Assembly (NCBI GenBank): GCA_001769385.1
Contig: MEPB01000048.1
Span: 21,548-85,547, forward strand
DNA length: 64,000 nucleotides
Reading direction: 5' to 3'
Source: Bacteroidetes bacterium RIFCSPLOWO2_12_FULL_35_15
GTDB taxonomy: Bacteria; Bacteroidota; Bacteroidia; 2-12-FULL-35-15
Position 1 is the first letter of the stretch. Every line of letters begins with the position of its first letter. The position numbers were made by a program, and so were the translations under genes. Shown here piece after piece: positions 7,650-57,659 of the stretch. The notes under the pieces are model-generated. The model ran no database searches. It was not told the DNA's origin and saw nothing but the letters and a program-made list of their open reading frames with translations.

Positions 7650-8540
7650 GTTGTAGTATGGTACGCAGATTTAGCGGATTGTTTAAGATTTAAAATGATT
7701 TTTTGTAGGTGATTGTATAAGGATATTCTGTGTTGAAGCACTTTGTAGTATGGTACGCAGATTTAGGGGAGAGTTTAAGATTTAAAAATGATTTTTGTTG
7801 CTGATTATTATAGGATATTCCGTGTTGAAGTACTTTGTGGTATGGTACGCAGATTTAGCGGATTGTTTAAGATTTAAAAATGATTTTTGTTGCTGATTGT
7901 TCTAGGATATTCCGTGTTGAAGTACTTTGTAGTGTGGAACGCAGATTTAGGGGAGAGTTTAAGATTTAAAATGATTTTTTGTAGGTGATTGTATAAGGAT
8001 ATTCTGTGTTGAAGTACTTTGTAGTATGGTACGCAGATTTAGCGGAGAGTTTAAGATTTAAAAATGATTTTTGTTGCTGATTATTATAGGATATTCCGTG
8101 TTGTACTTTGTGGTATGGTACGCAGATTTCGCGGATAGTTTAGGATTTTAAAATGATTTTTGTTGATGATTGTTATATGATTTCTGTATTGAAGATTGTT
8201 ATAAGATATTCCGTGTTGAAATACTTTGTAGTATGGTACGCAGATTTCGCGGATAGTTTAAGATTTAAAAATGATTTCTGTATTGAAGATTGTTATAAGA
8301 TATTCCGTGTTGAAATACTTTGTAGTATGGTACGGAGATTTCGCGGATAGTTTAAGATTTAAAAATGATTTTTGTTGCTGATTGTTATATGATATTATGT
8401 GTTGAAGATTGTTATAGGATATACGTTATTGAAATTCGCATTTTGAATGATCTTAATTTATTATAAAGTCCTAACTAACATTTAAATCTTATCATTTTTT
8501 TATCATAAAAATCTTAATAAATCTGCGTCCGATCGAATCA
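7650..8540. repeat. Tandem array of ~8 direct repeats (unit ~92 bp, one 118-bp variant) with a terminal inverted partial copy
   Basis: Copies of the unit containing tatggtacgcagattt start near 7657, 7749, 7841, 7934, 8025, 8114, 8232 and 8326. An inverted partial copy aaaaatcttaataaatctgcgtcc lies at ~8505-8530. The 65-aa ORF at 8153-8350 is repeat-derived. Confidence 0.85.
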
Positions 8541-12839: not shown

Positions 12840-12859
12840 GGTTTGGTTTATATATACTG

Positions 12860-13310
12860 GATATTATGGTACGCAGATCTTTTAGGATTTTTAAGATTAA
12901 AAATGATTTTGTTTTATTCTATAATTATGATTTTAGGTTTTGACTGTTTTATATACTTGGTATTATGGTACGCAGATCTATATGAATTTTTATGATTTAA
13001 AATGATTTGGTTTTATGTTATAATTATGATTTTAGGTGTTGGCTGTTTTATTTAGTTGGTATTATGGTACGCAGATCTATATGAATTTTTATGATTTAAA
13101 ATGATTTGGTTTTATGTTATAATTATGATTTTAGGTGTTGACTGTTTTATATACTTGGTGTTATGGTATGCAGATCTTTTAAGATCTTTAAGATTAAAAA
13201 TGATTTTGTTTTATGCTATAATTATGATTATGATTTTATGTATTGACTGTTTTATATACTTGGTATTATGGTACGCAGATTTATTAAGATTTTTAAGATC
13301 AAAAAAGATT
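12860..13310. repeat. Tandem array of 5 direct repeats (~99 bp unit) of the tatggtacgcagat family
   Basis: Unit starts are near 12863, 12961, 13060, 13159 and 13264. The 82-aa ORF at 13101-13349 is a repeat artefact. Confidence 0.85.
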
Positions 13311-13311
13311 T

Positions 13312-13731
13312 TTATGTTGTTGAGGTTAAGATTATTTTATGTTTCTTGAATTCGTTGGAAAGAACCTTTCTTTTGTATTGTGGCTCTGTTCCAAAATTAA
13401 GAAGTAAGCCAACTTCCATCTCTGTTGCCCTTAAATAGTTGACTAACTGGATTTCATGTTCAATGATAATTTCTTCAACAGCCTTTAATTCAATCACTAT
13501 AAGATTTTCTACAACAATATCTGCAAAATAGGAACCCACAACTTCCCCTTCATAATAAACAGTTATTGGTTTTTGTTTTTCGCATTTTAGTTTCAACTTT
13601 TTTAACTCGATAGTTAATGCATTTTCATAAACTTTTTCATAGAATCCATAACCAATCGTGTTATAAACATTAAAAAATGCTTTTAATATTAGTCCTGTAA
13701 TTCCAGAATGTTTAAAGTTGTCATCCATCAT
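13312..13731 (-). CDS. GxxExxY family protein (PD-(D/E)XK nuclease-like)
   Basis: 139 aa. Contains G-F-Y-E-K-V-Y-E-N-A (GxxExxY) and the acidic/lysine residues IVVENLIVIELKA. It is flanked by the repeat array and its inverted copy. Confidence 0.7.
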   Translation of the reverse strand: MMDDNFKHSGITGLILKAFFNVYNTIGYGFYEKVYENALTIELKKLKLKCEKQKPITVYYEGEVVGSYFADIVVENLIVIELKAVEEIIIEHEIQLVNYLRATEMEVGLLLNFGTEPQYKRKVLSNEFKKHKIILTSTT

Positions 13732-39874: not shown

Positions 39875-40105
39875 GTCATTTCGAACGAAATGAAATGAAG
39901 AGAGAAATATCATTTTGCGAAGAAGAGATTTCTCCCTCTGGTCGAAATGACATTTAGGAAAGTCATTTCGAACGAAATGAAGAGAGAAATCTCATTTTGC
40001 GAAGAAGAGATTTCTCCCTCTGGTCGAAATGACTTTAGGAAAGTCATTTCGAACGAAATGAAATGAAGAGAGAAATCTCATTTTTGCAAAGAAGAGATTT
40101 CTCCC
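39875..40105. repeat. Tandem cluster (~3 units, ~75 bp each) of the REP/MITE-like hairpin family
   Basis: The unit gtcatttcgaacgaaatgaa(atgaa)gagagaaatctcattttgcgaagaagagatttctccctctggtcgaaatgac is repeated. The 72-aa ORF 40063-40281 is repeat-derived. Confidence 0.8.
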
Positions 40106-42455: not shown

Positions 42456-45400
42456 ATGAAAAAAATAATACTAATTAACTGTCTTATATTCTTAAGTATT
42501 ATAAAAGCATTTGCACAACCCGCTAATGACGGTTGTGCCGGAGCTCAATCTGTTACACCTGATGGAACCTGTGTTGCAGGGACTACTGTAGATGCTACTG
42601 ATGGCTGGACGGGAAGTGTCGGTTGTCAATCCGGAGCTAGTCATCCGGAGGTTTGGTACTCTTTTGTTTCCACTGGAACGCAAGCAAGTTTCACAATTAC
42701 AAATGGTACAATGACTGGAAATATTGAGTTGGTTTTAGTTGAATCCTCTGGTCCTTGTGCCGGGCTGGCTTTAACAGGATCCTCTTGCGGAGCTTCTCCT
42801 TTAAGTGCTTCGTTTAATGGTTTGGTGATCGGTACAACCTATTATTATACCATTTCTTCTTCTACTTCTTCGCTTGGAACTTTTACAACTTGTGTAACCA
42901 CATCCAATCCTCCTCCGGTCTCCGGACAAGATTGTGGAAATGCTGCAATATTATGTAATAACAATCCTTTTTCACAGGGTACCTCAAGTGCTGGTGCAGG
43001 AGCTGTTTTTGGAAATGCTTCTAATGAAAATTTATCTGCATTGGGTTGTTTGGCATCTGATGAGCGTCAATCAAAATGGTATAAATTTACCATAGGTTGT
43101 ACAGGTACCATAGAGTTTTTAGTGGATCCTAATGATAATGCAAATGACTATGATTGGGCTGTTTATGATATTACTACTTCCGGTTGTGCATTAACTCCAG
43201 GTGGCGCAGCTGCAGGAGGAGCAACCCAGGTAGCTTGTAATTACAGTGGTTGTCCTGGAAATACAGGGATTCTGAATCCTTTAACGGATCCATGTACGAT
43301 AACTAATTATACAACATGCGAAGCGGCCGGAGGGCCCGGTAATTGCAGTGGTGCTGATATTGGTCAGTTTAGTATTGCACCTCCGACTCTTACTGCTGGC
43401 CATACGTATGCATTAATTATTGATAACTTTTCTCTTTCAAATGCAGGATTCGCATTCTCTTGGTTAAGTGGTGGAACAGCAACTATTGGACCTGATGCAA
43501 ATTATACGTATGCAAATCCATCCTGTGGCGTGTTTAATTTTACTAAATCGTGTGCTACAATTAATTCAACTTTTCTTTGGACCTTTGGTGATGGAGGAAC
43601 TTCAACTTTACAAAATCCTTCACATACTTATGTAACCGGTGGAACTTACATAATTTCTTTACAAGTTACGGACGCTCTTGGTTGTATTAATACAAGCAGC
43701 CAAACAGTTGCTTTTTTAACACCGCTAGCAACAGCTACTCCGGCATCACAAAGTATTTGTTCGGGTACATCTACTTCTATTGCATTAAGTAGTACTGTAA
43801 TCGGAACAACTTATGCCTGGACTGTTAGCGAAACTGGTGTTTCAGGAGCCAGTGCCGGAAGCGGTTCTTCTATTGCCCAGACATTGACTTTAACAGGAGC
43901 TGTTGCCGGAACTGCAACATATACGATTACTCCTACAGCTGCCGGTTGTGTTGGTGCAACAATCACGGTTACAATTACTGTCAACCCTAGTGCTACCATC
44001 GTACTTTCTTCTGCTGTTGGTACAAATGCGCAAACAGTTTGTGCATTAGCAGCAATTGCAAATATTACTTATACTGTTGGCGGAGCTGGAACTGGTGCAG
44101 GTGTTACCGGTTTGCCTGCTGGCGTTACCGGAGCATTTGCAGGAACGACATTCACTATCAGCGGTACACCAACAGCAACCGGAACTTTTAACTATGTTGT
44201 TACAACTACCGGAACCTGTACTCAGGCAACAGCAACCGGAACTATTATCGTGAATCCCAATGCGACAATTACACTAACTTCAGCTGCAGCTACAACAGCT
44301 CAGACGCTTTGTGTAAGTACAGCAATTACAAATATTACATACACAGTTGGTGGAGGTGGAACAGGTGCAGGGGTAACAGGTTTACCGGCTGGCGTAACAG
44401 GTTCTTTTGCAGGCGGTGTTTTCACAATCAGCGGCACTCCTACTGCAACAGGCACGTTTAATTACACGGTAACAACAACAGGAAGTTGCACGCAGGCAAC
44501 AGCACTCGGAACAATAACGGTAAACCCGAATGCCAGCATAACTTTAACATCCGCAGTAGGTTCTAATGCACAAACTATTTGCTTAACATCACCTGTCACA
44601 ACTATTACCTATACAGTTGGTGGTGGTGGAACCGGAGCTGGTGTAACAGGTTTGCCGGCAGGTGTATCAGGTTCTTTTGCAGGAAGTACATTTACGATCA
44701 GCGGAACTCCAACTGCAACAGGTACATTTAACTATGTAGTAACAACTACCGGAACCTGTACACAGGTTACCGCATTAGGGACTATCATTGTTAATCCGAA
44801 TGCGACAATTACCTTAACGTCTGCAATAGCTACTACAGCACAGACTCTTTGTGTAAGTACAGCAATTACAAATATTACATATACCATTGGTGGAGGTGGA
44901 ACAGGTGCAGGGGTAACAGGTTTGCCGGCCGGGGTAACAGGTTCTTATGCAGGTGGAATTTTCACAATCAGCGGCACTCCTACCGCAACAGGCACTTTTA
45001 ATTATACAGTAACAACAACGGGAACCTGTACCCAGGCAACAGCGCTGGGAACAATAACGGTAACCCCGAATGCAACCATAACTTTAACATCCGCAGTAGG
45101 TACCAATGCACAAACTATTTGCTTAACATCACCTGTCACAACGATTACCTATACGGTTGGTGGTGGTGGAACCGGTGCAGGTGTGACAGGTTTACCTGCA
45201 GGTGTAACGGGTTCTTTTGCCGGAAGTACATTCACGATCAGCGGAACACCAACAGCAACAGGTACATTTAACTATGTAGTTACAACTACCGGAACCTGTA
45301 CGCAGGTTACCGCATTAGGGACTATCATTGTTAATCCGAATGCGACAATTACCTTAACGTCTGCAATAGCTACTACAGCGCAGACTCTTTGTGTAAGTAC

Positions 45401-48400
45401 AGCAATTACAACTATTACTTACTCCATTGGTGGAAGCGGAACAGGGGCAGGTGTAACAGGTTTACCCGCGGGCGTAACAGGTTCTTTTGCCGGAGGAGTA
45501 TTTACAATAAGTGGAACTCCAACAGCATCAGGCACATTTAATTACACCGTAACAACAACGGGTACTTGCACACAAGCAACTGCTACAGGCAGCATAACAG
45601 TTAATCCATTACCTGCCATAACTTCAATCCCTTTTACAAATGAAACTACTTGTGGTGCTAGTGATGGAACAATAACAATTAATGCAACAGGTACCGGACT
45701 GACATATTCTATTAATGGTGGAACTTCATTTGTTGGAACTAATCTTTTTACAGGATTAGCAGCAGGAAGTTACACGATTGTTGTTGAAAATGCAGCAGGT
45801 TGTACAGTCAATGGTGGTGTAATATCTATCAGCAGCGCTGGTGCTCCTGCAACGCCTGCCGCTAATGCAGCCCCAAATCCTCTGTGTGAAGGTTCAGCTT
45901 TAACATTAACAGTTGTCGCCCCGGTTGGAGGCGTAACTTATAACTGGTCAGGTCCGGGAGGATATTCAGCAACAGGATCATCTGTTTCTATTCCAGGTGT
46001 TACAACCGCTATGACCGGTGTTTATACTGTAACCGGGAGTATTGGCTCTTGTGTGAGTCCGGGAGGATCAGTAACAGTAACTGTGGATCCAAATGCTGCC
46101 ATTGCTTTAACTTCAGCAGTAGGAACAGATATACAAACATGGTGTCTAACAAATACCATCACTACCATTAGTTATACAATTACCGATGGCGGCACGGGAG
46201 CTGGCGTAACAGGATTGCCAATAGGAGTAACAGGCTCTTATGCAGGAGGCATATTTACGATCAGTGGCACACCAACAGAAACCGGAACATTTAATTATAC
46301 AGTGACTACAACCGGAACTTGTACGCAAGCAGTGGCAAGCGGAACAATAACTATCAATCCCAATGCAATTATTACGTTGACATCTGCAGCCGGAACAGAT
46401 TCACAAATTGAATGTATCAACACTGCAATTACCGCCATAACCTATTCCGTAACCGGTGGTGGAGCAGGTGCCGGAGTTACAGGTTTACCGACAGGTGTAA
46501 CAGGTTCTTTTGCAGGAAGCATATTCACTATCAGCGGAATACCAACAGCTACCGGTACGTTTAATTATACAGTCACCACAACAGGAACCTGTACACAAAC
46601 AACAGCAACTGGAAGTATCATTGTAAACCCGGATGCAGCTATCACTTTAACATCAGCTGTTGGAACAGATGCACAAACATGGTGTCTTACTGATGCAGTA
46701 ACTACTATAACCTATTCTATAACAGGTGGTGGAACTGGTGCTGGTATAACTGGTTTGCCGGCAGGGGTGACTGGTTCTTTTTCAGGAGGGGTTTTTACAA
46801 TTAGCGGAACACCAACAGTAACCGGTGTTTTTAATTATCTGGTAACAACAACCGGATCCTGCACTCAAGCAAGTGCAACCGGAAGCATCACCATAAATTC
46901 AAATGCCATAATTACATTAACATCAGTAGCGGGAAGTGATATACAAACGTCCTGTATCAATGTCGCGATCACTCCAATAACATACTCTGTTTCAGGTGGT
47001 GGTGCCGGTGCCGGAGTAACAGGTTTACCAGCAGGTGTGGCAGGTTCTTTTTCAGGAGGGATATTCACTATCAGCGGAACTCCAACAGCAACAGGCATAT
47101 TTAACTACACGGTAACTACTACCGGTACTTGCACTCAGACAACAGCAACCGGTACCATAAATGTAAATCCGGATGCCATTATTGCTTTAACCTCAGCGGT
47201 TGGAACAGAAGCACAAACAGTATGTATTAATATACCAATCACTACTATTACATATTCAGTAACAGGAGGCGGAACAGGAGCCGGTGTAACAGGTTTGCCT
47301 ATAGGCATAACCGGATCATTTGCTGGGGGTGTGTTTACTATTTTTGGGACACCAACAGCATCAGGCACATTTAATTATAGCGTAACAACAACCGGTACGT
47401 GTAGCCAAGCAACTGCACTTGGAACAATAATAGTGGACAGTGATGCAGCTATTGCTTTAACATCTGTTGCAGGAACTGACGCACAAACAGCATGTATAAA
47501 TACAGCCATCACTTCAATCACATATTCTATAACAGGGAGTGGAACAAATGCCGGAGTAACCGGATTACCTGCAGGAGTAACAGGTTCATTGGCTGCAGGG
47601 GTCTTTACTATAAATGGAACACCTACTGCAACCGGTACATTTAATTATACCATAACAACAACAGGAACCTGTATCCAAACTACAGTATTGGGAAGTATGG
47701 TCATTAATCCGGATGCTGTTATTGCTTTAACATCGGCAGCCGGAACCAATTCACAAACGCTATGTATCAATACAGCGATTTCTGTAATTACATATTCCAT
47801 AACAGACGGTGGAACAGGAGCTGGTGTAACTGGTTTGCCGGCAGGTGTAACAGGATCATTTGCTGCAGGTGTGTTTACAATTTCCGGAACACCATCCACA
47901 TCAGGAACATTTAATTATACGGTAACAACAACAGGTACTTGTCTCCAAGCAACAGCAACCGGAAGCATTATTATTAATGCATTACCGATCATCGATACTA
48001 CTAACATTGTAATTACTCCGGCTACCTGTGGACTATCGGATGGATCTATAACCGGCATCACCGCTTCAGGTGCAACAGTATTAGCCTACACATGGAATGG
48101 AGCAGCAAGCGCTACAACTGATCTGATTAATGTTCCGGTTGGTGCATACACATTGGTGGCGATGGATATAAATAATTGCTCATCTTCAATGGGGCCGGTT
48201 CAAATAATAAACCCCGGAGCCCCTGCTGCTCCAGCCGCTCCGAGTCCTGCGGCTTATTGCCAAGGCGCTGCAATTGCCGATTTAACGGCAACGGGCACAG
48301 GAGGAACATTAACATGGTATGCAGATGCAGGCTTAATAGCTCAGGTAGGTACAGGTAGTCCTTTTACAACAGGCGTTACAAGTACCAGCACTTTTTATGT

Positions 48401-50168
48401 TACAGAAACGGTAAGTGGCTGCCAGAGTTCAGCAACAGTGGTAACTATTACGGTTAATCCTCCGCCATCCGCTCCAACAGCTCCAAGCCCGGCATCTTAT
48501 TGTCAGGGTGATACTATTGCTGATTTGACGGCAACAGGTACAGGTGGAACATTCACCTGGTATTCAGATGCCGGTTTAATAACTCAAGTAGGTACGGGTA
48601 GCCCTTTTGCATCAGGAGCTACAAGTACCGGTACTTTTTATGTAACAGAAACGGTAAGTGGTTGTCAGAGTGCGGCAACAACGGTAACTATTACAGTTAA
48701 TCCTCCTCCATCAGCACCAACTGCTCCAAGTCCTTCTGCTTATTGCCAAGGTACTGCCATTGCTGATTTAACAGCCTCCGGAACAGGGGGAACATTTACA
48801 TGGTATTCGAATCCAGGCTTAACAACTCAGGTAGGAACAGGTAGTCCTTTTGCATCCGGAGCAACAAATACAACTACTTTTTATGTAACAGAAACTTTAG
48901 GTGGATGTCAGGGTCCTGCAACAGCAGTAACTGTTACGTTTACTCCTGCCCCATTGGCTCCAACAGCTCCAAGCCCTGCAGCGTATTGCCAGGGTGCAGC
49001 TATTGCAGATTTAACAGCAACAGGTACAGGAGGCACATTCACCTGGTATTCAGATTCCGGTCTAACCACACAAGTGGGAACAGGAAGCCCTTTTGCCTCC
49101 GGAGCCACAAGTACCGGCACTTTTTATGTAACAGAAACAATAACCGGGTGTCAGAGCTTAGCAACAGCAGTAACCATTACCGTTAATTCGCCTCCATCAT
49201 CACCAACTGCTCCAAGTCCTGCAGCGTATTGTCAGGGTGATGCTATTGCGAATTTAACAGCGACAGGAACAGGCGGAACATTCACATGGTATTCAAATCC
49301 CGGCTTGACCACTCAAGTAGGGACAGGAAGTTCTTTTGCATCCGGAGCCACCAGTACCAGCATTTTTTATGTTACACAAACCATATCAGGATGTCCGAGT
49401 TCAGCAACTGCAGTGACTATTACAATTAATAATATACCAACTACTCCAACCGCAGGAAGCAACAGCCCAATATGCGAGGGTTCTGCATTAAATTTAACTT
49501 CTGATACAGTAACAGGAGCAACCTATAGCTGGACAGGTCCAAACGGATTCAATTCTCCTGCTGAGGATCCGGTTGTTAGTACTAGCGCTACTGTGGCGAT
49601 GTCTGGAACATATTCAGTTACTGTAACAGTAGCAGGTTGTACCAGTCTGGCAGGAACAACTTCCGTAATTGTGAATCCGCTACCTATTGCCAGTGCAGGA
49701 GTTGATGCAATGATCCTATCCGGTAGTTCCATAACATTAACGGCCAGCGGTGGCGGGTCGTATTTATGGAGTACAGGTGATACTGACACAACTATTACAG
49801 TTTCACCTACTGTTACTACAGATTATTGCGTAACGGTGATGGATGTAAATTCCTGTTCAGATAGTGATTGTGTTCGGGTAATTGTTGAAATACCTTGCGG
49901 AACATTATTTGTACCGCTTGCATTTTCACCAAATGGTGATAATGAAAATGATGTGTTGTCTGTTTATGGAGATTGTATTACGTATCTTGAATTTGTAATT
50001 TTTGATCGTTGGGGAGAAAAAGTATTTGAAACAAGCGACCAAACAATAAGTTGGGACGGTACCTACAAAGGAAAAAAATTGGATACTGCTGTTTTTGTTT
50101 ATTATTTGAAGGCAACAGTAAAAGGGGAATCAATAAACAAACACGGTAATATTACATTAACGAAATAA
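42456..50168 (+). CDS. Giant SprB-like cell-surface repeat adhesin with gliding-motility-associated (T9SS type-B) C-terminal domain
   Basis: 2570 aa with a signal peptide. SprB repeats (TCGASDGTITINATG; TCGLSDGSITGITASG). About 20 tandem ~90-aa T/G-rich Ig-like repeats and 5 x ~82-aa repeats. The C-terminus FSPNGDNENDVLSVYG...FDRWGEKVF is a type-B CTD. It is followed by sprF/porP. Confidence 0.8.
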   Translation: MKKIILINCLIFLSIIKAFAQPANDGCAGAQSVTPDGTCVAGTTVDATDGWTGSVGCQSGASHPEVWYSFVSTGTQASFTITNGTMTGNIELVLVESSGPCAGLALTGSSCGASPLSASFNGLVIGTTYYYTISSSTSSLGTFTTCVTTSNPPPVSGQDCGNAAILCNNNPFSQGTSSAGAGAVFGNASNENLSALGCLASDERQSKWYKFTIGCTGTIEFLVDPNDNANDYDWAVYDITTSGCALTPGGAAAGGATQVACNYSGCPGNTGILNPLTDPCTITNYTTCEAAGGPGNCSGADIGQFSIAPPTLTAGHTYALIIDNFSLSNAGFAFSWLSGGTATIGPDANYTYANPSCGVFNFTKSCATINSTFLWTFGDGGTSTLQNPSHTYVTGGTYIISLQVTDALGCINTSSQTVAFLTPLATATPASQSICSGTSTSIALSSTVIGTTYAWTVSETGVSGASAGSGSSIAQTLTLTGAVAGTATYTITPTAAGCVGATITVTITVNPSATIVLSSAVGTNAQTVCALAAIANITYTVGGAGTGAGVTGLPAGVTGAFAGTTFTISGTPTATGTFNYVVTTTGTCTQATATGTIIVNPNATITLTSAAATTAQTLCVSTAITNITYTVGGGGTGAGVTGLPAGVTGSFAGGVFTISGTPTATGTFNYTVTTTGSCTQATALGTITVNPNASITLTSAVGSNAQTICLTSPVTTITYTVGGGGTGAGVTGLPAGVSGSFAGSTFTISGTPTATGTFNYVVTTTGTCTQVTALGTIIVNPNATITLTSAIATTAQTLCVSTAITNITYTIGGGGTGAGVTGLPAGVTGSYAGGIFTISGTPTATGTFNYTVTTTGTCTQATALGTITVTPNATITLTSAVGTNAQTICLTSPVTTITYTVGGGGTGAGVTGLPAGVTGSFAGSTFTISGTPTATGTFNYVVTTTGTCTQVTALGTIIVNPNATITLTSAIATTAQTLCVSTAITTITYSIGGSGTGAGVTGLPAGVTGSFAGGVFTISGTPTASGTFNYTVTTTGTCTQATATGSITVNPLPAITSIPFTNETTCGASDGTITINATGTGLTYSINGGTSFVGTNLFTGLAAGSYTIVVENAAGCTVNGGVISISSAGAPATPAANAAPNPLCEGSALTLTVVAPVGGVTYNWSGPGGYSATGSSVSIPGVTTAMTGVYTVTGSIGSCVSPGGSVTVTVDPNAAIALTSAVGTDIQTWCLTNTITTISYTITDGGTGAGVTGLPIGVTGSYAGGIFTISGTPTETGTFNYTVTTTGTCTQAVASGTITINPNAIITLTSAAGTDSQIECINTAITAITYSVTGGGAGAGVTGLPTGVTGSFAGSIFTISGIPTATGTFNYTVTTTGTCTQTTATGSIIVNPDAAITLTSAVGTDAQTWCLTDAVTTITYSITGGGTGAGITGLPAGVTGSFSGGVFTISGTPTVTGVFNYLVTTTGSCTQASATGSITINSNAIITLTSVAGSDIQTSCINVAITPITYSVSGGGAGAGVTGLPAGVAGSFSGGIFTISGTPTATGIFNYTVTTTGTCTQTTATGTINVNPDAIIALTSAVGTEAQTVCINIPITTITYSVTGGGTGAGVTGLPIGITGSFAGGVFTIFGTPTASGTFNYSVTTTGTCSQATALGTIIVDSDAAIALTSVAGTDAQTACINTAITSITYSITGSGTNAGVTGLPAGVTGSLAAGVFTINGTPTATGTFNYTITTTGTCIQTTVLGSMVINPDAVIALTSAAGTNSQTLCINTAISVITYSITDGGTGAGVTGLPAGVTGSFAAGVFTISGTPSTSGTFNYTVTTTGTCLQATATGSIIINALPIIDTTNIVITPATCGLSDGSITGITASGATVLAYTWNGAASATTDLINVPVGAYTLVAMDINNCSSSMGPVQIINPGAPAAPAAPSPAAYCQGAAIADLTATGTGGTLTWYADAGLIAQVGTGSPFTTGVTSTSTFYVTETVSGCQSSATVVTITVNPPPSAPTAPSPASYCQGDTIADLTATGTGGTFTWYSDAGLITQVGTGSPFASGATSTGTFYVTETVSGCQSAATTVTITVNPPPSAPTAPSPSAYCQGTAIADLTASGTGGTFTWYSNPGLTTQVGTGSPFASGATNTTTFYVTETLGGCQGPATAVTVTFTPAPLAPTAPSPAAYCQGAAIADLTATGTGGTFTWYSDSGLTTQVGTGSPFASGATSTGTFYVTETITGCQSLATAVTITVNSPPSSPTAPSPAAYCQGDAIANLTATGTGGTFTWYSNPGLTTQVGTGSSFASGATSTSIFYVTQTISGCPSSATAVTITINNIPTTPTAGSNSPICEGSALNLTSDTVTGATYSWTGPNGFNSPAEDPVVSTSATVAMSGTYSVTVTVAGCTSLAGTTSVIVNPLPIASAGVDAMILSGSSITLTASGGGSYLWSTGDTDTTITVSPTVTTDYCVTVMDVNSCSDSDCVRVIVEIPCGTLFVPLAFSPNGDNENDVLSVYGDCITYLEFVIFDRWGEKVFETSDQTISWDGTYKGKKLDTAVFVYYLKATVKGESINKHGNITLTK

Positions 50169-50305
50169 AACAGGTTACGAATAAACAAATAAAAACGAAT
50201 TTACAAAACGAATCAAAAATGAAGATGTGTAGCAAATTAGTAAACATTTTTTTATTGCCGACTTGTAAGTTCTTAGCAAAAACTGAACATTAAAACAATA
50301 ACGAG

Positions 50306-51373
50306 ATGAAAACAAAAAACGAAATGGCTGTCCTGACAATTAAAAAGGCATTTTTTATTGCTGTATTAGTAGGATTAGTTAATTATGTTCCTGCAATAGC
50401 ACAGGATATTCACTTTTCGCAATTTGATGAAACCCCATTGCAATTGAATCCTGCAAATGCAGCTGTGCGGCACGAAATATCTGTAATTGCCAATTATAAA
50501 AATCAGTGGCAAAGTGTTGGGGCGCCTTATAAAACATTTGCATTTTCAGGAGAAGTTAAATTATTAAAAAAGAAAAAACAAAACCTTGGATTAGGAATTG
50601 ATTTTTTTAATGATAAAGCCGGTGATTCACAAATGGGAACTACTCAGGCAAATTTATCTCTTTCAGGAATTATTCCGCTTAATTCTAAAAGTCTTATTTC
50701 CGGTGGATTAATGTGTGGCTTTGCACAACGTACCATGACAAGCGGAAAACTTAGTTGGGGAAAACAATATAACGGAATGGACTATGATGCAAGTTTGCCA
50801 ACCGGTGAAATAAGTTCTGTTAGTAATTATACCTTTCTTGATCTTGGTGCCGGAGTACAATATAGCTATGGTACACATGAAATGTATATCTCTGCCAATG
50901 ATGCAAGAAAGATAAATATTGGAGTGTCTGTTTTTCACCCGCATCAACCGGCCTATTCCTATTATGGAGATAAGTCGCAAAGATTGCACATGAAACTAAT
51001 ATTTCATGGTGATGCAGCATTGGGAATAAAAAACACAAACCTGATATTAAAACCTTCTTATATTATTTTCATACAAGGAGCAACAAAAGAAATAACACCC
51101 GGTATGACCTTCCAGTATGTTTTACAGGAGTCCTCAAAATATACGGGCATCAAAAAAGCTTCTGCTGTTTCTCTTGGTGCTTATTATCGAACACAAGATG
51201 CATTTATAGCAATAGTAAAGTATGAATATTCAAATTATGCAGTCGGATTTAGTTACGATATTAATCTTTCAAAATTAAAAACAGTTTCTTCTGCTCGTGG
51301 CGGATTCGAAATTTCTTTACGATTTATTGCCCCTGCTGCTTTTGGTAAAAGCACTTCAAGAGCAAGGCTATAA
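50306..51373 (+). CDS. sprF: PorP/SprF family type IX secretion system membrane protein
   Basis: N-terminus AQDIHFSQFDETPLQLNPANA is the PorP/SprF signature. ~355 aa beta-barrel. Positioned directly after the type-B CTD adhesin. Confidence 0.8.
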   Translation: MKTKNEMAVLTIKKAFFIAVLVGLVNYVPAIAQDIHFSQFDETPLQLNPANAAVRHEISVIANYKNQWQSVGAPYKTFAFSGEVKLLKKKKQNLGLGIDFFNDKAGDSQMGTTQANLSLSGIIPLNSKSLISGGLMCGFAQRTMTSGKLSWGKQYNGMDYDASLPTGEISSVSNYTFLDLGAGVQYSYGTHEMYISANDARKINIGVSVFHPHQPAYSYYGDKSQRLHMKLIFHGDAALGIKNTNLILKPSYIIFIQGATKEITPGMTFQYVLQESSKYTGIKKASAVSLGAYYRTQDAFIAIVKYEYSNYAVGFSYDINLSKLKTVSSARGGFEISLRFIAPAAFGKSTSRARL

Positions 51374-51880
51374 ATTAGTAATAGTGTGACTATTTTATTG
51401 ATTTCTTTTTGAAATGAAGTTCGGCAGGATGCCGGTTAATAAAAGCGGAGCGGGACGCTCTGCTTAACAGAGAGCATAAAAAAAGCTTCTGCTGTTTCTC
51501 TTGGTGCTTATTATCGAACACAAGATGCATTTATAGCAATAGTCAAGTATGAATATTCAAATTATGCAGTCGGATTTAGTTATGATATTAATCTTTCAAA
51601 ATTAAAAACAGTTTCTTCTGCTCGTGGCGGATTCGAAGTTTCTTTACGATTTATTGCCCCCGCTGCTTTTGGTAAAAGCACTTCAAGAGCAAGGCTATAA
51701 ATTAGTAATTGTGAACTGTTTTATTGATTTCTTTTTGAAATGAAGTTTAGCAGGATGCCGGTTAACAGAGCAAGGCTATAAATTAGTAATAGTGTGAACT
51801 GTTTTATTGATTCTTTTTGAAATGAAGTTCGGCAGGATGCCGGTTAATAAAAGCGGAGCGGGACGCTCTGCTTAACAGAG
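51152..51880 (+). repeat. Direct tandem duplication (2.3 copies) of the sprF 3' end plus downstream hairpin region
   Basis: Copy A is 51152-51476, copy B is 51477-51770 (~97% identical with a 25-bp internal deletion) and partial copy C is 51771-51880. All junctions are at ttaacagag. Confidence 0.85.
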
Positions 51881-52004
51881 GATTCTCCACTTAACATGTT
51901 TTTCAGCTTGATCTTTCCGAATAAATCATGTATTTTCTTTTACAAAAAAAGTGCTGAAATTAGTTTCAGCACTTTTTTTATTTAACCAGTTTTTTAGCAT
52001 TGTA

Positions 52005-55000
52005 TCATTTCAGCAAAGTAACAATGCCTTTATAATAATGTACATTCTTTTTGATGTCAGTAACATTAATTGAATAAACATATACATCTACCTCTGCCAT
52101 TTCGCTTCCTCCTTTTGTTTTACCGGTCCAGGGTTTATTGATATCATCGGTTTTATAAACGAGATTTCCCCAGCGATCATAGATGCTCATCTCATATTTC
52201 TCAATAAAAATACCTCTTCCTGAAAAACTATCATTCAACCCGTTTCCATTGGGTGTAAATGCACTGGGAATGTAAAACATAAAATCAGGTTCGATAGTGA
52301 TGTTTTGATAGGCCGTATCCCAACAATTGTATTGGGTGGAGGTGATCAATGTAATGATATAGGTTCCGGTATCCGCATACGTATGAGGTGTTGGATCAGC
52401 ATTGGAAAATGTTGTCAGATCTCCCAGATCCCAGGACCAAAAATTTGCTCCGGTCGATAAATTTGTGAACGTAATGATCGGAGTAAGAATGGTCGTACTT
52501 GTTGGCTGAACATTAAAATCTGCAACCGGATTCGGATATACCACGATGTAATTATTTTGTGTGAAGGTGCTTATACAGCCTTTATCAGAGGTAACTGTTA
52601 AAGTCACACCGGATGCTATCGGTACAAAAACAGAATCATTGGTATAACAATTTGTTGGAGACGGAGAATTACTGCTTGCGGCCTGTCAGCAATGTAACGG
52701 TATATATTCCTGCCGCAGCAAAGTTATGCGAAGGGCTTTGAGTGGTATTGACAGGTGTGCCATCACCGAAATCCCAATTCCAGGAAGTGATCGTTCCTGA
52801 AACGCTGCTTGAGTTGTCGGTAAATTGGGTGGCATTACCGGCGCAAACACTTGTATTTGTGAAATCAGCAACCGGCATGGAATAGATTGTAATTGTAGCC
52901 ACCGTGGTATCGGGGCAACCCAGCGATGTGGAATGAGTAATAAGCGTGACCGTATAATTTCCTGCTGTTGCATATAAATGTGCCGGACTCCAGCTTGTTG
53001 TATTGATGGCTGTACCATCACCAAAATCCCATGACCAATTTGCCATACTCCCCATTGCAGGATCGGTAGATGTGTTTGTAAATAGTGCAGAATCAAGTAA
53101 GCAGGTATTACTGAACGTGAATGTTGATGTAGGAGCATCAAAAGAAGTTACAGAAATAGTCGCAACATTGGAACATCCGTCACTGGTTGTGGCCAACAAA
53201 GTAACAGTATAAATACCTGCACTGGAATAATAATTAGTAGGATCTTGTGCAGTACTTGTTGCTCCGCTACCGCCAAATGTCCATAAATAGCCGGCTAGCG
53301 AAGTAGAAGCATCCACCGAAGAGGTATTGATAAAAGGCATGGTGTCGCCTGCGCATACATTTCCAAAGGTAAAGTTTGCAGTAGGAATATAATACACCTG
53401 AACAGGTTTGCTGATTGTAGTGGTGCAACCAAAACTATTACCTGCTATCAACGTAGCATTATACATTCCTGCTGCAGCATAGGTATGCGAAGGATTTTGA
53501 GTATTATCTAAAGGTGTGATATCACCGAAATCCCAATTCCAGGAAGTGATCGTTCCGGAGCTAGTGCTTGAATTGTCGGTAAATTGGGTGATATTGCCTG
53601 CACAAACACTTGTGCTGTTAAAATCCGCAAGAGGAGCAGGGTTAACAGTCACGGTTATCTGATCAGTTGCCGTACATCCATTTGCATCGGTAATGGTTAC
53701 CGTATAAGTTCCTGTTGCAGCAGCGGTAATGGATTGACTTGTTTCAGTGGTGTTCCAACTGTAAGAGCTGGAATTATTGGCTGTAAGAAGTACGTTACCT
53801 CCCGGACAAAATGCAAGGGGACCATTTGGAGTGATGGAGGCGCTGGCAACATTTACGGTAATGGTAATACTGTTTTGTGAGGTGCAACCATATCGGTCTG
53901 TTTCGGTAACACTATATACGGTAGTCACCAAAGGAGAAGTAGTAAAAGTTGCTGCGCTTGAGGTAAATCCCGCAGGGACCGATGTCCAGCTGTATGTATA
54001 AGGTTGGGATCCTAAAATCGTAGTTGCCGAAACCGTTACACTTTGTCCTAAGCAGATTGCTGTTGCAGATGGTGTAATAGTAGTTACAGGGCAAAGATTA
54101 ACTTCAATAACAGAAAGAGAATTATAACTGTTGCAATCCAGGTCGTTCCATGTTCCGGCAGGATAAATTTGTGTACATTCTTCATCTCCGGAATTATTAG
54201 GCTCACCAGCGGCCCAGTTTTCGTAACCTAAGGGACTACCATCATACCATGAGAAGGGACCACCGGGGAATGATCGTCCATAGCCGATCCATATAACCTG
54301 ACTTGCATAGCCCTGATTATTTAAAGCATTCATCAGATCCGTATTTTCAGTACCTGATTGAACAGAGATCAGATCGGCACCGAATGTTTGGGCATACGTT
54401 TCTGCTGCAGGACCCGACATAAACTGAGGATTAATAAAATATAAACTACAGGAATTGTCCATGTTCACCAGTTCTGTATTACCCGCACCTATTAATGTAG
54501 AACGAATAAGCGAAAGATTACAATTATTAGGAGGAGGTAAAGGAGAGCATCCAACAGCATCAGTACCTGCAACGCAAGGGCACAGATCATTGTAATTAGG
54601 TACCCCATCGCCATCGCTATCTGCTGTTCCATTTGCCGTAACATTGGCCACTAACAATAAACCATAAGGACCACCTCCGTTATAAACCAATACATCCACA
54701 TAATTAATTCCCGGAACCCAGGGACCAACTAAGGTCATGTTTAGTTGTGTTCCTGCTGCAAAGCCTCCTCCGCTAAAGCCGGTACTATTGCCATTTATAA
54801 ATACATCTGATATGGTATTGTCAACATATCCCGATAAGTTCAAAGTAAAACTACCGGGAGTGGATACACTATTGCCATTGCAATCGGGTGGCAAGTTGAT
54901 TGTTAATCTGAAATAGCGATATCCCAGCTGGGCGTCAGGATCCGTGCAAGGTACATTGGATTCAGAGATCCAGTTCCCATTATTGATCGGAGGAGGTAAG

Positions 55001-55293
55001 GTGGCAGGGTCTATCCATGCTCCTACCGCACAAGCGTTTGAAATTAAAGCAGATCCATACGTTTGAGTCAATGGTCCGGGTGGCACACCAAATATTACAG
55101 GTGATACCAACCAAAGCGGATCGATGGATCCTTGTGGTCCTTGCCCGGTAGCTAAAGTTATAGGATTAGGAAATGTTTGCGCCTGACCATTAACGAAGAA
55201 AGTTAATGCAAACACATTCATTAAAAGAAAAACCTTTTTTAATTTTAAATACCTTAGGCCATTCAGTTTAGTGATAGACATTTTATTTGTCAA
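52005..55293 (-). pseudogene. C-type-lectin/PKD/TSP3-repeat protein with gliding-motility-associated (type-B) C-terminal domain, interrupted by a frameshift near 52665-52685
   Basis: ORF 52669-55293 (signal peptide; DSDGDGVPNYND; C-type lectin GEPNNSGDEECTQIYPAGTWNDLDCN; multiple PKD WNWDFGDG) continues in another frame (..ASSNSPSPTNC..VTLTVTSDKGCIST) into ORF 52005-52607, which holds a PKD and the type-B CTD FTPNGNGLNDSF...YDRWGNLVY. Confidence 0.6.
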
Positions 55294-55594
55294 TTTTTAT
55301 TTAGTAAAAATTCAAGGCTGAGGGTTTGAAATGAAAAATTTCAAACCCTTATAGATGCGTTTCATATGCAATTTACAAACAAATTTGAATTACATCGAAA
55401 TTATGTTCTCAAAAATCAAAAAATTAATCCTGGTTGATTCATTTAAAATTTTCCTTAATAATTTTTTTAGATTAGTGTTATTGATTTAATTATTTAAAAA
55501 TAGCTTAAATTTGATAATATATATAAATCTAGATTACATTGAGTTTGTAAATAAAGCATCGTCCTAATCTCTCACAGTTAATAATCAAACAATA

Positions 55595-57358
55595 ATGAAA
55601 AGTAAACTATTTATTGTTTTAGTTTTTCTGGGGGAGATTTTGATCGGACAAGAAAAAGTTGAGAAACTTAAAAAGCAAATCACTACCTACACCTATCTCA
55701 ACCACTACGATTCCGCACAAACAATAGTGCTTGACTATCTTGACCAAAAAGAGCTTTCACCTTTAGAAATATTTTACGGACATTTTTTGTTTGCCGATAT
55801 TTTAAAATCTTCGAACAAACCAATTGAGGCAATTGAAAAGTTTAAGGAATGTAAAAAATATCTCGATGCAATTGCAGAAAATAAAAACTACTTGTCACTT
55901 ATTGATGGCGACATTGCTGAATGTTATTTCAATATGTCACAGTATGAAGATGCGAAAAGATATGCCTTGTTGTCGCTGCAAACCAGTCCTGATTCTAGCC
56001 TTAGAGGAAGCGGGCATGCTGTAAATTATATGATATTGGGTTATGCCAATTACATTTCAAAAAATTATTCGTTGGCACTGGAAAATTATAACAATGCGAT
56101 GAAACGATATAACGCTTATGGTGCGTCATGCGAATTGCCCTTGTGCTATATGAAAATTGCCAAGGTGTATAATTCGATGGGAAATGAAAAACTTGCAGAA
56201 GAAAACATAAACAAAGCTATTTCAATAAGTGATTCCTGTGAGATTGAAAATTATAAACTGCTTTCAAAACGGACCTTGTTTGATATTTATAAAGAAAATA
56301 AAAATTACGAAAAAGCATTAATGCAATTGGAGGAAATAAATAACCTGGTTGCTAAACTGGAATACGCGAAACAAGGCAAGGTAATGAGTGAAATGGAGGT
56401 GAAATACAAAACTTTACTTTCTCAAAAAGAAATAGAAAATCTTAAAAAAATAAATGAGGCAAATAAAAAAACACTTGCAGAACAAGAGAGGGTACTTTTC
56501 ATTGTAATAGTTGCAATATTAATTTTATGTGTTTTCCTTTTTTTTCTGGTACGAATTTCCAATCAACGAAAAAAAGCAAAGCAGGAACTCGAATTGCTGA
56601 ATGTCTCACTTGAGCAAAAAGTAATTAAAAGAACGAAAGAGTTAGCTGAAGACATACTTGTTCGTAGAGAATTAGAAAAGCAATTGAGCGAAAAAATAAA
56701 TGAAATGGAAACGCTCATTTCAAAGCTTTCTCATGATCTGCGCTCTCCGCTTTTAAGTGTTCTTGGATTGATCAATGTTGCTGAAAATGATCCTGAATCC
56801 GACAAGTCAATATATTTAGATAAAATAAAAGAATCGATAAAAAGACTCGATCATATTATCATTGACATAACCAATACGATATATGTTTCTACTATGGAGC
56901 AGAATCCGGAAGTGATTCAGTTTGAAAAGATGATCAACGAAACAATAGCGGTTTTGCAATTTAGAGAAAATTTTGAAAAAATAAAGATCAGCATCCTCAT
57001 TAATCAGACAAAGGATTTTTATTCCGATCCGAAATTTTTACAATCTATCATTCAGAATCTGCTTGAAAATGCAGTAAAATATAGCAACTGCCTCATTGAG
57101 CCGTGCATTGAAATAGTAGTTCAGGAAGATGCCAAAGGAGTACTACTAAAAATAACAGATAATGGAACGGGGATCAGTCCTGAATTTCATGATAAAATAT
57201 TCGACATGTTTTTCCGTGGAACAGAGATTTCGAAAGGTACGGGACTTGGATTATACATTGTAAAAAAAGCTGTTGAGAAGCTCCATGGAAAAATTGAATT
57301 GCAAAGCGAAAAAGGAAAAGGAACTATCTTTACAATTCATCTTCCAAATCTGATTTAG
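55595..57358 (+). CDS. Sensor histidine kinase with N-terminal TPR repeats and one TM helix
   Basis: H-box LSHDLRSPL, N/G boxes NLLENAVKYS, DNGTGI and GTGLGLYIV. TPR-like N-terminal half. Confidence 0.8.
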   Translation: MKSKLFIVLVFLGEILIGQEKVEKLKKQITTYTYLNHYDSAQTIVLDYLDQKELSPLEIFYGHFLFADILKSSNKPIEAIEKFKECKKYLDAIAENKNYLSLIDGDIAECYFNMSQYEDAKRYALLSLQTSPDSSLRGSGHAVNYMILGYANYISKNYSLALENYNNAMKRYNAYGASCELPLCYMKIAKVYNSMGNEKLAEENINKAISISDSCEIENYKLLSKRTLFDIYKENKNYEKALMQLEEINNLVAKLEYAKQGKVMSEMEVKYKTLLSQKEIENLKKINEANKKTLAEQERVLFIVIVAILILCVFLFFLVRISNQRKKAKQELELLNVSLEQKVIKRTKELAEDILVRRELEKQLSEKINEMETLISKLSHDLRSPLLSVLGLINVAENDPESDKSIYLDKIKESIKRLDHIIIDITNTIYVSTMEQNPEVIQFEKMINETIAVLQFRENFEKIKISILINQTKDFYSDPKFLQSIIQNLLENAVKYSNCLIEPCIEIVVQEDAKGVLLKITDNGTGISPEFHDKIFDMFFRGTEISKGTGLGLYIVKKAVEKLHGKIELQSEKGKGTIFTIHLPNLI

Positions 57359-57427
57359 AGATTGTTTAAATTTTATTCAAATGTATTATATGTCACTCCT
57401 TCGACTTTGCTCAGAATAAATTCCAGA

Positions 57428-57483
57428 AGAAATCTCATTTCTAGCTTAATTTTATTGAGATTTCTCCCTCTGGTCGAAATGAC
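57428..57483. repeat. REP/MITE-like hairpin element
   Basis: gaaatctcatttc...gagatttctccctctggtcgaaatgac. Confidence 0.6.
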
Positions 57484-57581
57484 AGAATGGTTAAAAATAT
57501 TGTAATTAGATTCTTTTATTAAATTTTAACAGGCTCTTAATTTCAAATTTAATTGTGCCTTTTCATTTTCATATAGTGGAC

Positions 57582-57604
57582 GAGCGTCCAGTTTTTTGAA
57601 GATT
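57582..57604 (+). terminator. Possible terminator hairpin
   Basis: gtggacgagcgtccag palindrome followed by T6. Confidence 0.4.
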
Positions 57605-57659
57605 TATTATTCATACGATCAGATTCTATTGCAACCATTGTCTTTTTCATTTTCAAATA

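Follow-up and report, generated by a model that had tools for sequence, protein, structure and literature searches.

Directly behind a gene for an outer-membrane protein of the T9SS, the genome of Bacteroidetes bacterium RIFCSPLOWO2_12_FULL_35_15 repeats the end of that same gene, once nearly in full and once in part. This raises the question of whether the repetition is genuine, how it arose and whether it does anything for the genes around it. We examined it in a stretch of 64,000 nucleotides, referred to here as the window. An earlier note on this DNA had described a tandem duplication that multiplies a putative terminator and forms a potential hot spot affecting a downstream lectin-domain gene.

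Results

The gene in question (50306–51373, plus strand) is intact and encodes a 355-aa protein identical to OFY85710.1 of Bacteroidetes bacterium RIFCSPLOWO2_12_FULL_35_15. Profile searches placed it in the PorP/SprF family of T9SS outer-membrane proteins, with 165.4 bits against TIGR03519 (cut-off 90.55) and 131.5 bits against PF11751 (cut-off 22.3). It adjoins a type-B CTD cargo gene, as the upstream ORF (42456–50168, plus strand) encodes 2570 aa with six Pfam Ig_7 domains, a PKD domain and a C-terminal CHU_C domain; such pairing of type-B CTD cargo with a porP-like gene has been described (PMC9143113). The name sprF used previously holds at the level of family membership only. The genome has at least three PorP/SprF paralogs, this gene included, and since only family-level homology and gene order bear on its role, the gene is not demonstrably SprF proper, the partner of the motile adhesin SprB on which secretion or anchoring of that adhesin and gliding depend. 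Two paralogous loci in the same genome contain a PD40/OmpA (porE-like) third gene, unlike the locus studied here. A remnant of such a gene was sought by blastn and tblastx of 51374–52004 against the paralogous loci and rejected, as only the SprF-derived part matched.

The repeat array consists of direct head-to-tail copies A, B and a partial C, with no foreign DNA between them, and takes up about 730 bp behind the gene (all on the plus strand). As delimited by alignments, copy A (51147–51472) is the full repeat unit and comprises 227 nt from the 3' end of the gene (51147–51373) followed by a 99-nt downstream spacer made up of D1 (51374–51439) and D2 (51440–51472). After a single base A at 51473, copy B (51474–51770) contains an orphan gene 3' end (51474–51700, ending in TAA), D1 (51701–51765) and the bases CAGAG, the last four of which (AGAG) overlap the start of copy C. 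Copy C (51767–51880) starts with 15 nt of gene sequence that end in the stop codon, and continues through D1 and D2. The ends of copies A and C have in common the longest exact repeat of the array, the 70-nt segment R (51811–51880, equal to 51403–51472). The tandem duplication of the gene end and downstream spacer, with its third partial copy, was thus correctly recognized before, while the unit, given as about 220 plus about 105 bp, has a gene part of 227 nt and a downstream part of 99 nt.

Alignment of copy A (51147–51439) with copy B (51474–51765) gave 283 identical columns out of 294 (96.3%); the first 240 nt are 98% identical, and the start-to-start spacing is 327 nt (109 codons). Copies A (51359–51472) and C (51767–51880) agree in 112 of 115 columns (97.4%), and TRF reported 51686–51847 as two copies with an 82-nt period. 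Where five substitutions had been noted earlier between A and B, there are five in the gene-derived 227 nt and, in addition, three substitutions and two small indels in the spacer. Overall, the copies diverge from each other by 2–7%. For a RecA-sensitive tandem repeat this implies a high age, as such repeats would be expected to disappear quickly unless they are retained or formed anew repeatedly; the observation runs against the reading we favor below.

The 9-bp string TTAACAGAG occurs at exactly three sites in the 64-kb window (51464, 51762, 51872; 0.55 expected by chance), while the spacer part and both of its hairpin sequences have no further site in the window. Nor was the D1–D2 module found in orthologous or paralogous loci or in any relative examined. 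Over this range of sequence the repeat is strictly local, whereas a dispersed REP/MITE-like element would be expected to place its module at several unrelated loci. Searches with the 16-mer GCAGGATGCCGGTTAA against collections of genome and metagenome contigs returned at least 120 stretches each, all chance matches because the pattern is too short, and none of the loci fetched from these matches contained flanking repeat sequence.

To describe how the copies are joined, we compared the junction-spanning sequences (A–B, AACAGAGAGCATAAAAAAAGC; B–C, GGTTAACAGAGCAAGGC; C–flank, TTAACAGAGGATTCTCC) with their parental flanks. At the A–B junction the flanks are TATACGG/GCATC and AACAGAG/GATTC, and the observed sequence is AACAGAG-A-GCATA. 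The homology here amounts to at most 1–2 nt (G), plus the base at 51473, for which an untemplated insertion or a G>A change within the 1–2-nt G microhomology could account. That this junction is essentially without microhomology and holds one unexplained base is a second observation against the favored reading. The B–C junction falls on a 4-nt AGAG microhomology common to CAAGAG/CAAGG and ACAGAG/GATTC. The proposal that each junction lies on a 9-bp microhomology is therefore not supported, as TTAACAGAG is the 3' end of the repeat unit rather than a recombination site common to the junctions, and the actual homologies are about 1–2 nt and 4 nt.

Two short hairpins are repeated with the unit. 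The D1 hairpin (CGGCA-GGA-TGCCG) is intact in copies A (51422–51434) and C (51830–51842) and weakened in copy B (TAGCA...TGCCG, 51748–51760), where its stem has changed from CG to TA. The D2 hairpin, with a 10-bp stem, one G.U pair and a GGA loop, is present in copies A (51443–51465) and C (51851–51873) and deleted from B. The hairpins are thus repeated as stated earlier in A and C, but not in B. In copy A the D2 hairpin is bracketed by TTAA at 51436–51439 and 51464–51467. The segment missing from B is not 25 bp, as had been given, but 28 nt (A coordinates 51440–51467), and it corresponds exactly to the 10-bp hairpin plus one of the two flanking TTAA repeats, that is, to one direct repeat together with the inverted repeat flanked by it. 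It agrees with a published model in which slippage occurs where a hairpin is enclosed by direct repeats (PMC4134008). The unit sizes of 327, 114 or 82, and 28 nt place all end points within the distance of a single replication fork, as slippage implies.

We then asked whether the array could be an assembly artefact in which strain variants or a collapsed repeat were mis-joined by a short-read assembler. All contigs showing the structure come from short-read MEGAHIT metagenome assemblies of samples that may not be independent, one assembly breaks inside the repeat, and a copy divergence of 2–4% falls within the range of strain variation. However, in the ENA assembly ERZ4903185 one contig (L002) runs across the A–B junction as far as 51543, and another (L015) begins at 51740 and includes the B–C junction together with the complete copy C; neither differs from the window at any position (100% identity). 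The step from the end of C to the unique flank is contained in a Logan contig (L016), and the whole repeat structure recurs in ERZ27254836. A second assembly thus has exactly the same bases at both junctions, which makes a random assembly chimera unlikely. Moreover, the junction homology of at most 4 nt is far below any usable k-mer overlap, so that reads must span the junctions, and the longest exact repeat (70 nt) is shorter than k = 141, which leaves a single-haplotype graph unbranched. Mis-assembly is accordingly a very unlikely explanation.

In simulations of the k = 141 graph, the contig ends at 51543 and 51740 appeared only after a C-to-B adjacency by way of the 70-nt repeat had been added. 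This suggests that some genomes in the second sample carry an extra B–C unit and that the copy number varies between populations; the predicted C-to-B junction would consist of C-type TTGATTCTTTTTG...TTAACAGAG followed by AGCATAAAAAAAGC. As the ends of A and C share 70 identical bases, the array can expand and contract by unequal recombination. Gene-call records for short ORFs inside the repeat were sought for contigs with alternative arrangements, and none was on record. The idea of a hot spot thus gains some support from the break points in ERZ4903185, which imply an extra B–C unit in another sample; the effect on the lectin-domain gene attached to this idea is considered with the terminators below.

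Copy B is in the reading frame of the gene and, as previously described, forms an orphan in-frame C-terminal fragment. Four stop codons separate the stop of copy A from it, and it contains no in-frame start codon. The five coding differences (A>B: C>A, A>C, C>T, A>G, T>C) comprise four synonymous changes and one conservative replacement (I>V), and the B-type variants read GTC, TAT, GTT and CCC. The resulting pS of 0.073 and pN of 0.006 give a pN/pS of 0.08, with p = 0.01–0.10 depending on the model, in a post hoc test on five differences for which the fairest orphan model gives p of about 0.08–0.10. The divergence of the spacer, at 3 substitutions in 66 nt, is of about the same size as pS. Copy B is derived at four of the five sites, and it is A that more nearly resembles the close outgroups (L011, L012), which would be expected of a conserved functional copy.

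The synonymous excess is suggestive only, but it would fit poorly with B as an orphan that was always untranslated. Copy B might instead be a functional allele of a sister strain, imported through illegitimate recombination facilitated by homology or through unequal recombination. Alternatively, the units of an array with changing copy number might have been swapped into the expressed position by repeated unequal recombination. On both accounts the gene-derived part of every unit would have been under coding constraint for some time. Besides the low pN and the match between spacer divergence and pS, the graph signature of an extra B–C unit in ERZ4903185 points to a recombinationally active array. 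However, this reading draws on five differences and a post hoc test; all polarizable changes are on B and none on A, which two equally constrained alleles would not predict; and the B-type valine is absent from the 90%-identity cluster of the protein, drawn from about 15 billion sequences. We therefore regard an active past of copy B as unlikely. Its furthest extension, a silent-cassette-like reservoir of variable copy number for the last beta-strands of the PorP/SprF protein, would have the 70-nt exact repeat and the 227 nt of gene-derived homology serve as sites of unequal recombination, which would cycle the cassettes in and out of expression and so keep them under coding constraint (pN/pS 0.08); we consider it highly improbable.

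Two other sources of the differences were rejected. Gene conversion from the paralogs does not account for B, as the B-specific bases do not match them. A diversity-generating retroelement was dismissed because the differences are not confined to adenines (adenine is found at only one or two sites, depending on which copy is assumed to be the template) and no RT domain was detected in ORFs of at least 180 aa from 17.9 to 64 kb of the window. The same scan of 17.9 to 64 kb yielded no integrase, transposase or reverse transcriptase.

Comparison with a relative (L012, 85% identical) showed that its ferrochelatase gene lies 52 nt behind the PorP/SprF gene, while the counterpart in the window starts at 57660. 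About 6.3 kb (51374–57658), containing the lectin/PKD/CHU_C gene and a histidine kinase, are absent from this relative, and the repeat forms the left edge of the indel. An element that targeted the 3' end of the gene and brought a replacement copy could have left att-like duplicates at such a border. Phages integrate at the 3' ends of E. coli icd or tRNA genes, and in the icd/e14 case the gene-end copies differ mostly synonymously, as they do here. However, there is no DNA between the copies, neither a copy nor a direct repeat was found at the right border of the indel, the 6.3 kb contain no integrase or other recombinase, and there is no compositional break. With flanking repeats, recombinase and compositional break all absent, an integration scar or island border was ruled out as exceedingly improbable.

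Finally, we analyzed the termination signals around the array. On the gene strand a U-tract is lacking behind both hairpins, as D1 is succeeded there by GUUAAUAAAAG and D2 by AACAGAG, and the terminator scan found no plus-strand site there. The real terminator is the inverted repeat at 51944–51979, a perfect 16-bp stem with A7/T7 flanks (-19.3 kcal/mol, z = -5.99), which has the features of a bidirectional intrinsic terminator and is common to both convergent genes. The earlier proposal that the array multiplies a putative terminator is therefore not supported; with the array in place, the strong terminator lies about 570 nt behind the stop codon instead of about 160 nt. The lectin_C/PKD/CHU_C gene (52005–55293, minus strand; two ORFs in different frames, 52669–55293 and 52005–52607) is convergent, and the repeat is consequently not upstream of it. 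The lectin gene points its 3' end (52005) towards the repeat, with the bidirectional terminator in between, and the suggested influence on its expression is not supported. No Bacteroidetes-type promoter (TTTG ... TAnnTTTG) was found within the repeat. A known RNA family was likewise rejected, as an Rfam search gave no match above noise and the sub-threshold ones were all centered on the generic terminator hairpin.

The array could still have been selected for a function, be it as backup terminators, as an insulator against antisense read-through from the convergent gene or as the source of a 3'UTR-derived small RNA. Read on the minus strand, both hairpins have T-rich tails, the consensus scan classes them as terminator-like (they make up four of its five sites, versus 1.3 expected), and they follow closely behind the main terminator of the convergent gene. 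However, the scan matches a loose consensus, the D2 stem includes an A.C mismatch on the minus strand, copy B lacks one hairpin and has the other damaged, and the duplicated DNA is mostly gene sequence rather than hairpin. Together with the missing Rfam match and the absence of the module from all relatives examined, this makes selected amplification a most improbable account.

Discussion

Taken together, our results suggest, with a probability of roughly 0.78, that the array is a genuine chromosomal structural variant that arose by two or three nested slippage or template-switching events and whose orphan copies are non-functional. Slippage at hairpins, one of the two routes named in the earlier note beside recombination, is the best mechanism, but it does not involve 9-bp junction microhomology. 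The ancestral state was probably gene, D1, D2, about 63 nt and the bidirectional terminator. A 327-nt segment reaching from codon 281 to 7 nt past the D2 hairpin would first have been duplicated in tandem with near-zero junction homology. Its 3' part would then have been duplicated again, either as 114 nt at the 4-nt AGAG with a later loss of 28 nt, or as 82 nt plus one untemplated C. The 28-nt loss from B would be a slippage deletion stimulated by the D2 hairpin, between the TTAA repeats on its two sides. The anatomy of the array, its junction sequences and their recurrence in a second assembly, the lack of a coding or RNA-family signal and the convergent layout are direct observations, from which the mechanism, the order of events and the copy-number variation are inferred.

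The duplication is real but ordinary, probably a replication-slippage scar of known mechanism, with no sign of purpose. It does not alter the expressed gene product and is in no position to regulate the lectin gene, and is accordingly not worth pursuing as a regulatory element. Its value lies mainly in quality control and as a worked example. It provides a natural illustration of hairpin-stimulated slippage, in which a hairpin and one flanking repeat were precisely excised from one copy, and it indicates that copy-number variation of repeats in metagenomes can be read from assembly break points. Should the bias towards synonymous changes and the variation in copy number both prove true, the array would be a small model for the concerted evolution of partial gene copies, of modest interest.

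Several known systems resemble the locus in part. With the att duplications of icd/e14 it has in common an orphan in-frame gene 3' end with mostly synonymous differences; there, however, the copies flank an integrase-bearing element, whereas here they are adjacent. In gene order it is like the sprB-sprF type loci of Flavobacterium johnsoniae, in which a giant CHU_C/type-B CTD cargo gene is directly followed by a porP-like (PorP/SprF-family) gene without a porE-like gene (PMC9143113), and no PD40/OmpA (porE-like) gene lies behind the PorP/SprF gene here either. Unlike at those loci, function is predicted here from sequence, and the duplication has no counterpart there.

As for mechanism, tandem duplications with microhomologies of 4–15 bp or shorter, sometimes with 1-bp insertions, are known as products of template switching (PMC1428787). 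Like the amplified regions of E. coli lac, the array consists of direct head-to-tail repeats with one novel junction per event, and the B–C junction resembles those of lac in its homology of a few bases, with at most 1–2 nt at A–B; some lac junctions also have a 1-bp insertion or point change (PMC1428787). In contrast to the lac amplicons of 7–32 kb, the units here measure 82–327 nt, short enough for slippage in a single replication fork, and three nested events lie within 730 bp with no evidence of dosage selection. The 28-nt loss from copy B is the product predicted by the model of Viguera, Canceill and Ehrlich (summarized in PMC4134008), although the deletion is deduced here from paralogous copies in a natural genome rather than from an experiment.

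A tandem repeat at the end of a PorP/SprF-family gene

The intact PorP/SprF-family gene (50306-51373, + strand, 355 aa) scores well over the curated cut-offs of TIGR03519 (165 bits) and PF11751 (131 bits), and the groundwater MAG 'Bacteroidetes bacterium RIFCSPLOWO2_12_FULL_35_15' encodes the identical protein (OFY85710.1). An earlier note had described a tandem repeat of its 3' end together with the following spacer, and sequence and alignments confirm this. Copy A (51147-51472, + strand) consists of the 227 nt at the 3' end of the gene and 99 nt downstream, rather than the ~105 first given. The spacer has two halves: D1 (51374-51439), which contains the small hairpin CGGCA-GGA-TGCCG, and D2 (51440-51472), which carries a 10-bp hairpin (stem 51443-51465) and the terminal TTAACAGAG. 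A single A (51473) separates copy A from copy B (51474-51770), in which the gene end and D1 are followed directly by CAGAG, and copy C (51767-51880) is limited to the final 15 nt of the gene, D1 and D2. Copies A and B are identical at 283 of 294 aligned positions and copies A and C at 112 of 115. The gene parts of A and B differ by five substitutions; the spacer adds three substitutions and two indels, and the deletion in copy B measures 28 nt instead of 25. No further copy of the spacer was found in the 64-kb window.

The same 7 kb including the repeat is found base for base in a 135-kb MEGAHIT contig of the ENA assembly ERZ27254836. A second assembly, ERZ4903185, carries both junctions on contigs 100% identical to the window: one runs from the gene across A|B and ends at 51543, and the other starts at 51740, crosses B|C and continues through the whole of copy C into the convergent gene. 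A Logan contig (SRR2090162) spans the end of copy C and its flank. The homology between a junction and its partner site never exceeds 4 nt, and no exact repeat is longer than 70 nt. As both lengths are well under k=141, such joins could not be an assembler's invention, and the reads must therefore contain A|B and B|C. Together with the agreement of the second assembly, this makes an assembly artefact very improbable.

Copy number of the repeat

The ends of copies A and C have a 70-nt exact repeat in common, R (51403-51472 and 51811-51880). The two ERZ4903185 contigs end at positions related to it, 51543 being the start of R plus 140 and 51740 the end of R in copy C minus 140. De Bruijn graphs (k=141) were constructed from the window haplotype by itself and from its mixtures with six candidate variants. 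The window haplotype alone gave one unbranched contig. Among the six variants, both contig ends were reproduced only by an adjacency of C to B through R, corresponding to an extra 407-nt B-C unit, in which case contigs 478 and 212 nt long would be expected between the two ends. A SNP at 51544 reproduced the left end only, and deletion variants gave other end coordinates. The modelled ends suggest that at least part of the population in this sample probably has the structure A-(B-C)n with n of at least 2; a circular excision product or chimeric reads would be a less likely source of the same ends. The idea that the locus is a hot spot thus gains some support, which we infer from contigs, and the copy number of the repeat probably varies.

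Coding and regulatory capacity of the copies

The gene-derived parts of copies A and B differ at five sites: four show synonymous changes at third codon positions and one an I>V replacement (pS 0.073, pN 0.006; Fisher test p = 0.013). The spacer has diverged to about the level of pS. For four sites out of the five, outgroups assign the derived state to copy B. An orphan that is never translated should gather nonsynonymous changes. The probability of at most one such change is 0.08-0.10 if the changes are divided over a neutral copy B and a copy A under constraint, and 0.011-0.015 if every change lies on copy B. Given the small number of sites (five) and the post hoc nature of the test, this synonymous bias is only suggestive. 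Copy B may stem from the functional allele of a sister strain, which would fit the four synonymous differences, but the B-type valine is absent from every allele in the 90% cluster of the protein. The same differences would also fit a dynamic array in which unequal recombination may bring one unit or another into the expressed position.

The A-B period of 327 nt equals 109 codons, which puts copy B in the reading frame of the gene; four stop codons separate the stop of copy A from copy B, and no in-frame ATG, GTG or TTG was found in copy B. Searches of the repeat yielded no Rfam match above noise and no Bacteroidetes-type promoter motif. The orphan copies accordingly appear, as far as their sequence indicates, to be non-functional.

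The repeat had also been thought to multiply a putative terminator and to affect a downstream lectin gene, and neither proposal is supported. No U-tract follows the D1 or D2 hairpin on the gene strand, and a consensus scan placed no + strand terminator there. A perfect 16-bp hairpin flanked by A7 and T7 (51944-51979, both strands, z = -6) is the predicted real terminator, common to both convergent genes. The lectin gene (52005-55293) lies on the minus strand with its 3' end facing the repeat. Not being upstream of that gene, the repeat is in no position to control it, and from this arrangement we see no regulatory link. On the minus strand, the scan found T-rich tails behind the repeat hairpins, which could in principle serve as weak backup terminators of the convergent gene. 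Selection for such a role is unlikely because copy B has lost one hairpin and the other is damaged. The sole clear consequence of the duplication is a longer distance from the PorP/SprF stop codon to the terminator, from ~160 to ~570 nt.

The lectin_C/PKD gene is itself split at ~52607-52669 into two ORFs in different frames, which sets an 874-aa lectin/PKD body apart from 200 aa with the last PKD and a CHU_C T9SS sorting domain. All assemblies seen have the identical split, which points either to a true frameshift (pseudogene) or to a consensus error that they have in common.

Gene neighbourhood and relatives

Directly upstream of the PorP/SprF gene lies a gene for a 2570-aa cargo protein with a CHU_C (type-B) T9SS sorting domain at its C-terminus. 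It contains 13 tandem 270-nt repeats (43971-48006) and five tandem 243-nt repeats (48228-49499) encoding Ig_7 domains, with DNA identities of 62-93%; the one pair at 93% hints at a recent duplication or conversion within the gene. At least three such cargo-PorP/SprF modules are present in the genome: the one in the window (42456-51373) and those at paralogous loci. Two of the latter have the order cargo - PorP/SprF - PD40/OmpA (porE-like), the third gene beginning 12-15 nt past the PorP/SprF stop codon in both. The window module is without this gene, as is sprB-sprF of F. johnsoniae, and the window and paralogous modules run parallel to the distinction between sprB-sprF and porE-linked modules (PMC9143113). 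Comparison with the paralogous loci ruled out that the repeat spacer is a remnant of a PD40/OmpA gene.

The closest sequences, two outgroup loci (L011 and L012), have ~85% DNA identity, and neither the duplication nor the D1/D2 spacer was found in these or the other relatives examined. In L012 (Logan SRR22387937), only 52 nt (1199-1250) lie between the PorP/SprF gene and a convergent ferrochelatase gene, which is found at 57660 in the window; 51374-57658 is therefore a 6.3-kb indel between the genomes. It contains the repeat at its left edge, the lectin/PKD/CHU_C gene and a TPR-histidine kinase gene. The repeat was rejected as an integration scar: there is no copy or direct repeat at the right border, no recombinase within or near the indel among ORFs of at least 180 aa scanned from 17.9 to 64 kb, no compositional break and no mobile-element signature.

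Other repeats occur in the window. Two intergenic tandem arrays with the common core motif TATGGTACGCAGAT, at 7651-8406 (period ~92-94 nt, ~8 copies) and 12846-13312 (period 99 nt, 4.6 copies), have internal matches of 87-93% and appear to form one family of repeat units specific to this genome. An identical 27-nt intergenic sequence, GAGATTTCTCCCTCTGGTCGAAATGAC, looks like a dispersed REP-like element; two copies are paired 82 nt apart (39925-39951 and 40007-40033), and the third (57457-57483) is in the stretch from the histidine kinase gene to the ferrochelatase gene, close to the indel's right border.

Junctions and mechanism

Each junction had been proposed to fall on a 9-bp string. The junction anatomy contradicts this: the three occurrences of TTAACAGAG in the 64 kb are all at the end of a repeat unit, and the string therefore marks the unit end (in copy B as a by-product of a TTAA-to-TTAA deletion) and not a recombination site. 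The A|B junction reads AACAGAG-A-GCATA, with the parents AACAGAG|GATTC and TATACGG|GCATC, that is, a microhomology of at most 1-2 nt (G) and one base that is untemplated or mutated. Template-switch duplications in E. coli have equally homology-poor junctions, at times with a 1-bp insertion (PMC1428787). The B|C junction reads GGTTAACAGAG|CAAGGCTATAA. Its parental sites are ACAGAG|GATTC, where the unit ends, and CAAGAG|CAAGG, within the gene; they have the 4-nt microhomology AGAG in common. Equally possibly, the B-C region would have arisen by a single 82-nt tandem duplication with one untemplated C; TRF reports a period of 82 at 51686-51847.

The 28-nt segment absent from copy B (A 51440-51467) is delimited by two TTAA repeats (51436-51439 and 51464-51467) and includes the entire D2 hairpin. 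Its loss would be explained by replication slippage from TTAA to TTAA across this hairpin, and the model of slippage between direct repeats that flank a hairpin (PMC4134008) predicts precisely this product. Taken together, the sequence features indicate that the repeat is a real, nested tandem duplication, local within the 64-kb window, that probably arose by the well-known mechanisms of slippage and template switching, and a new instance of an already known type of event.
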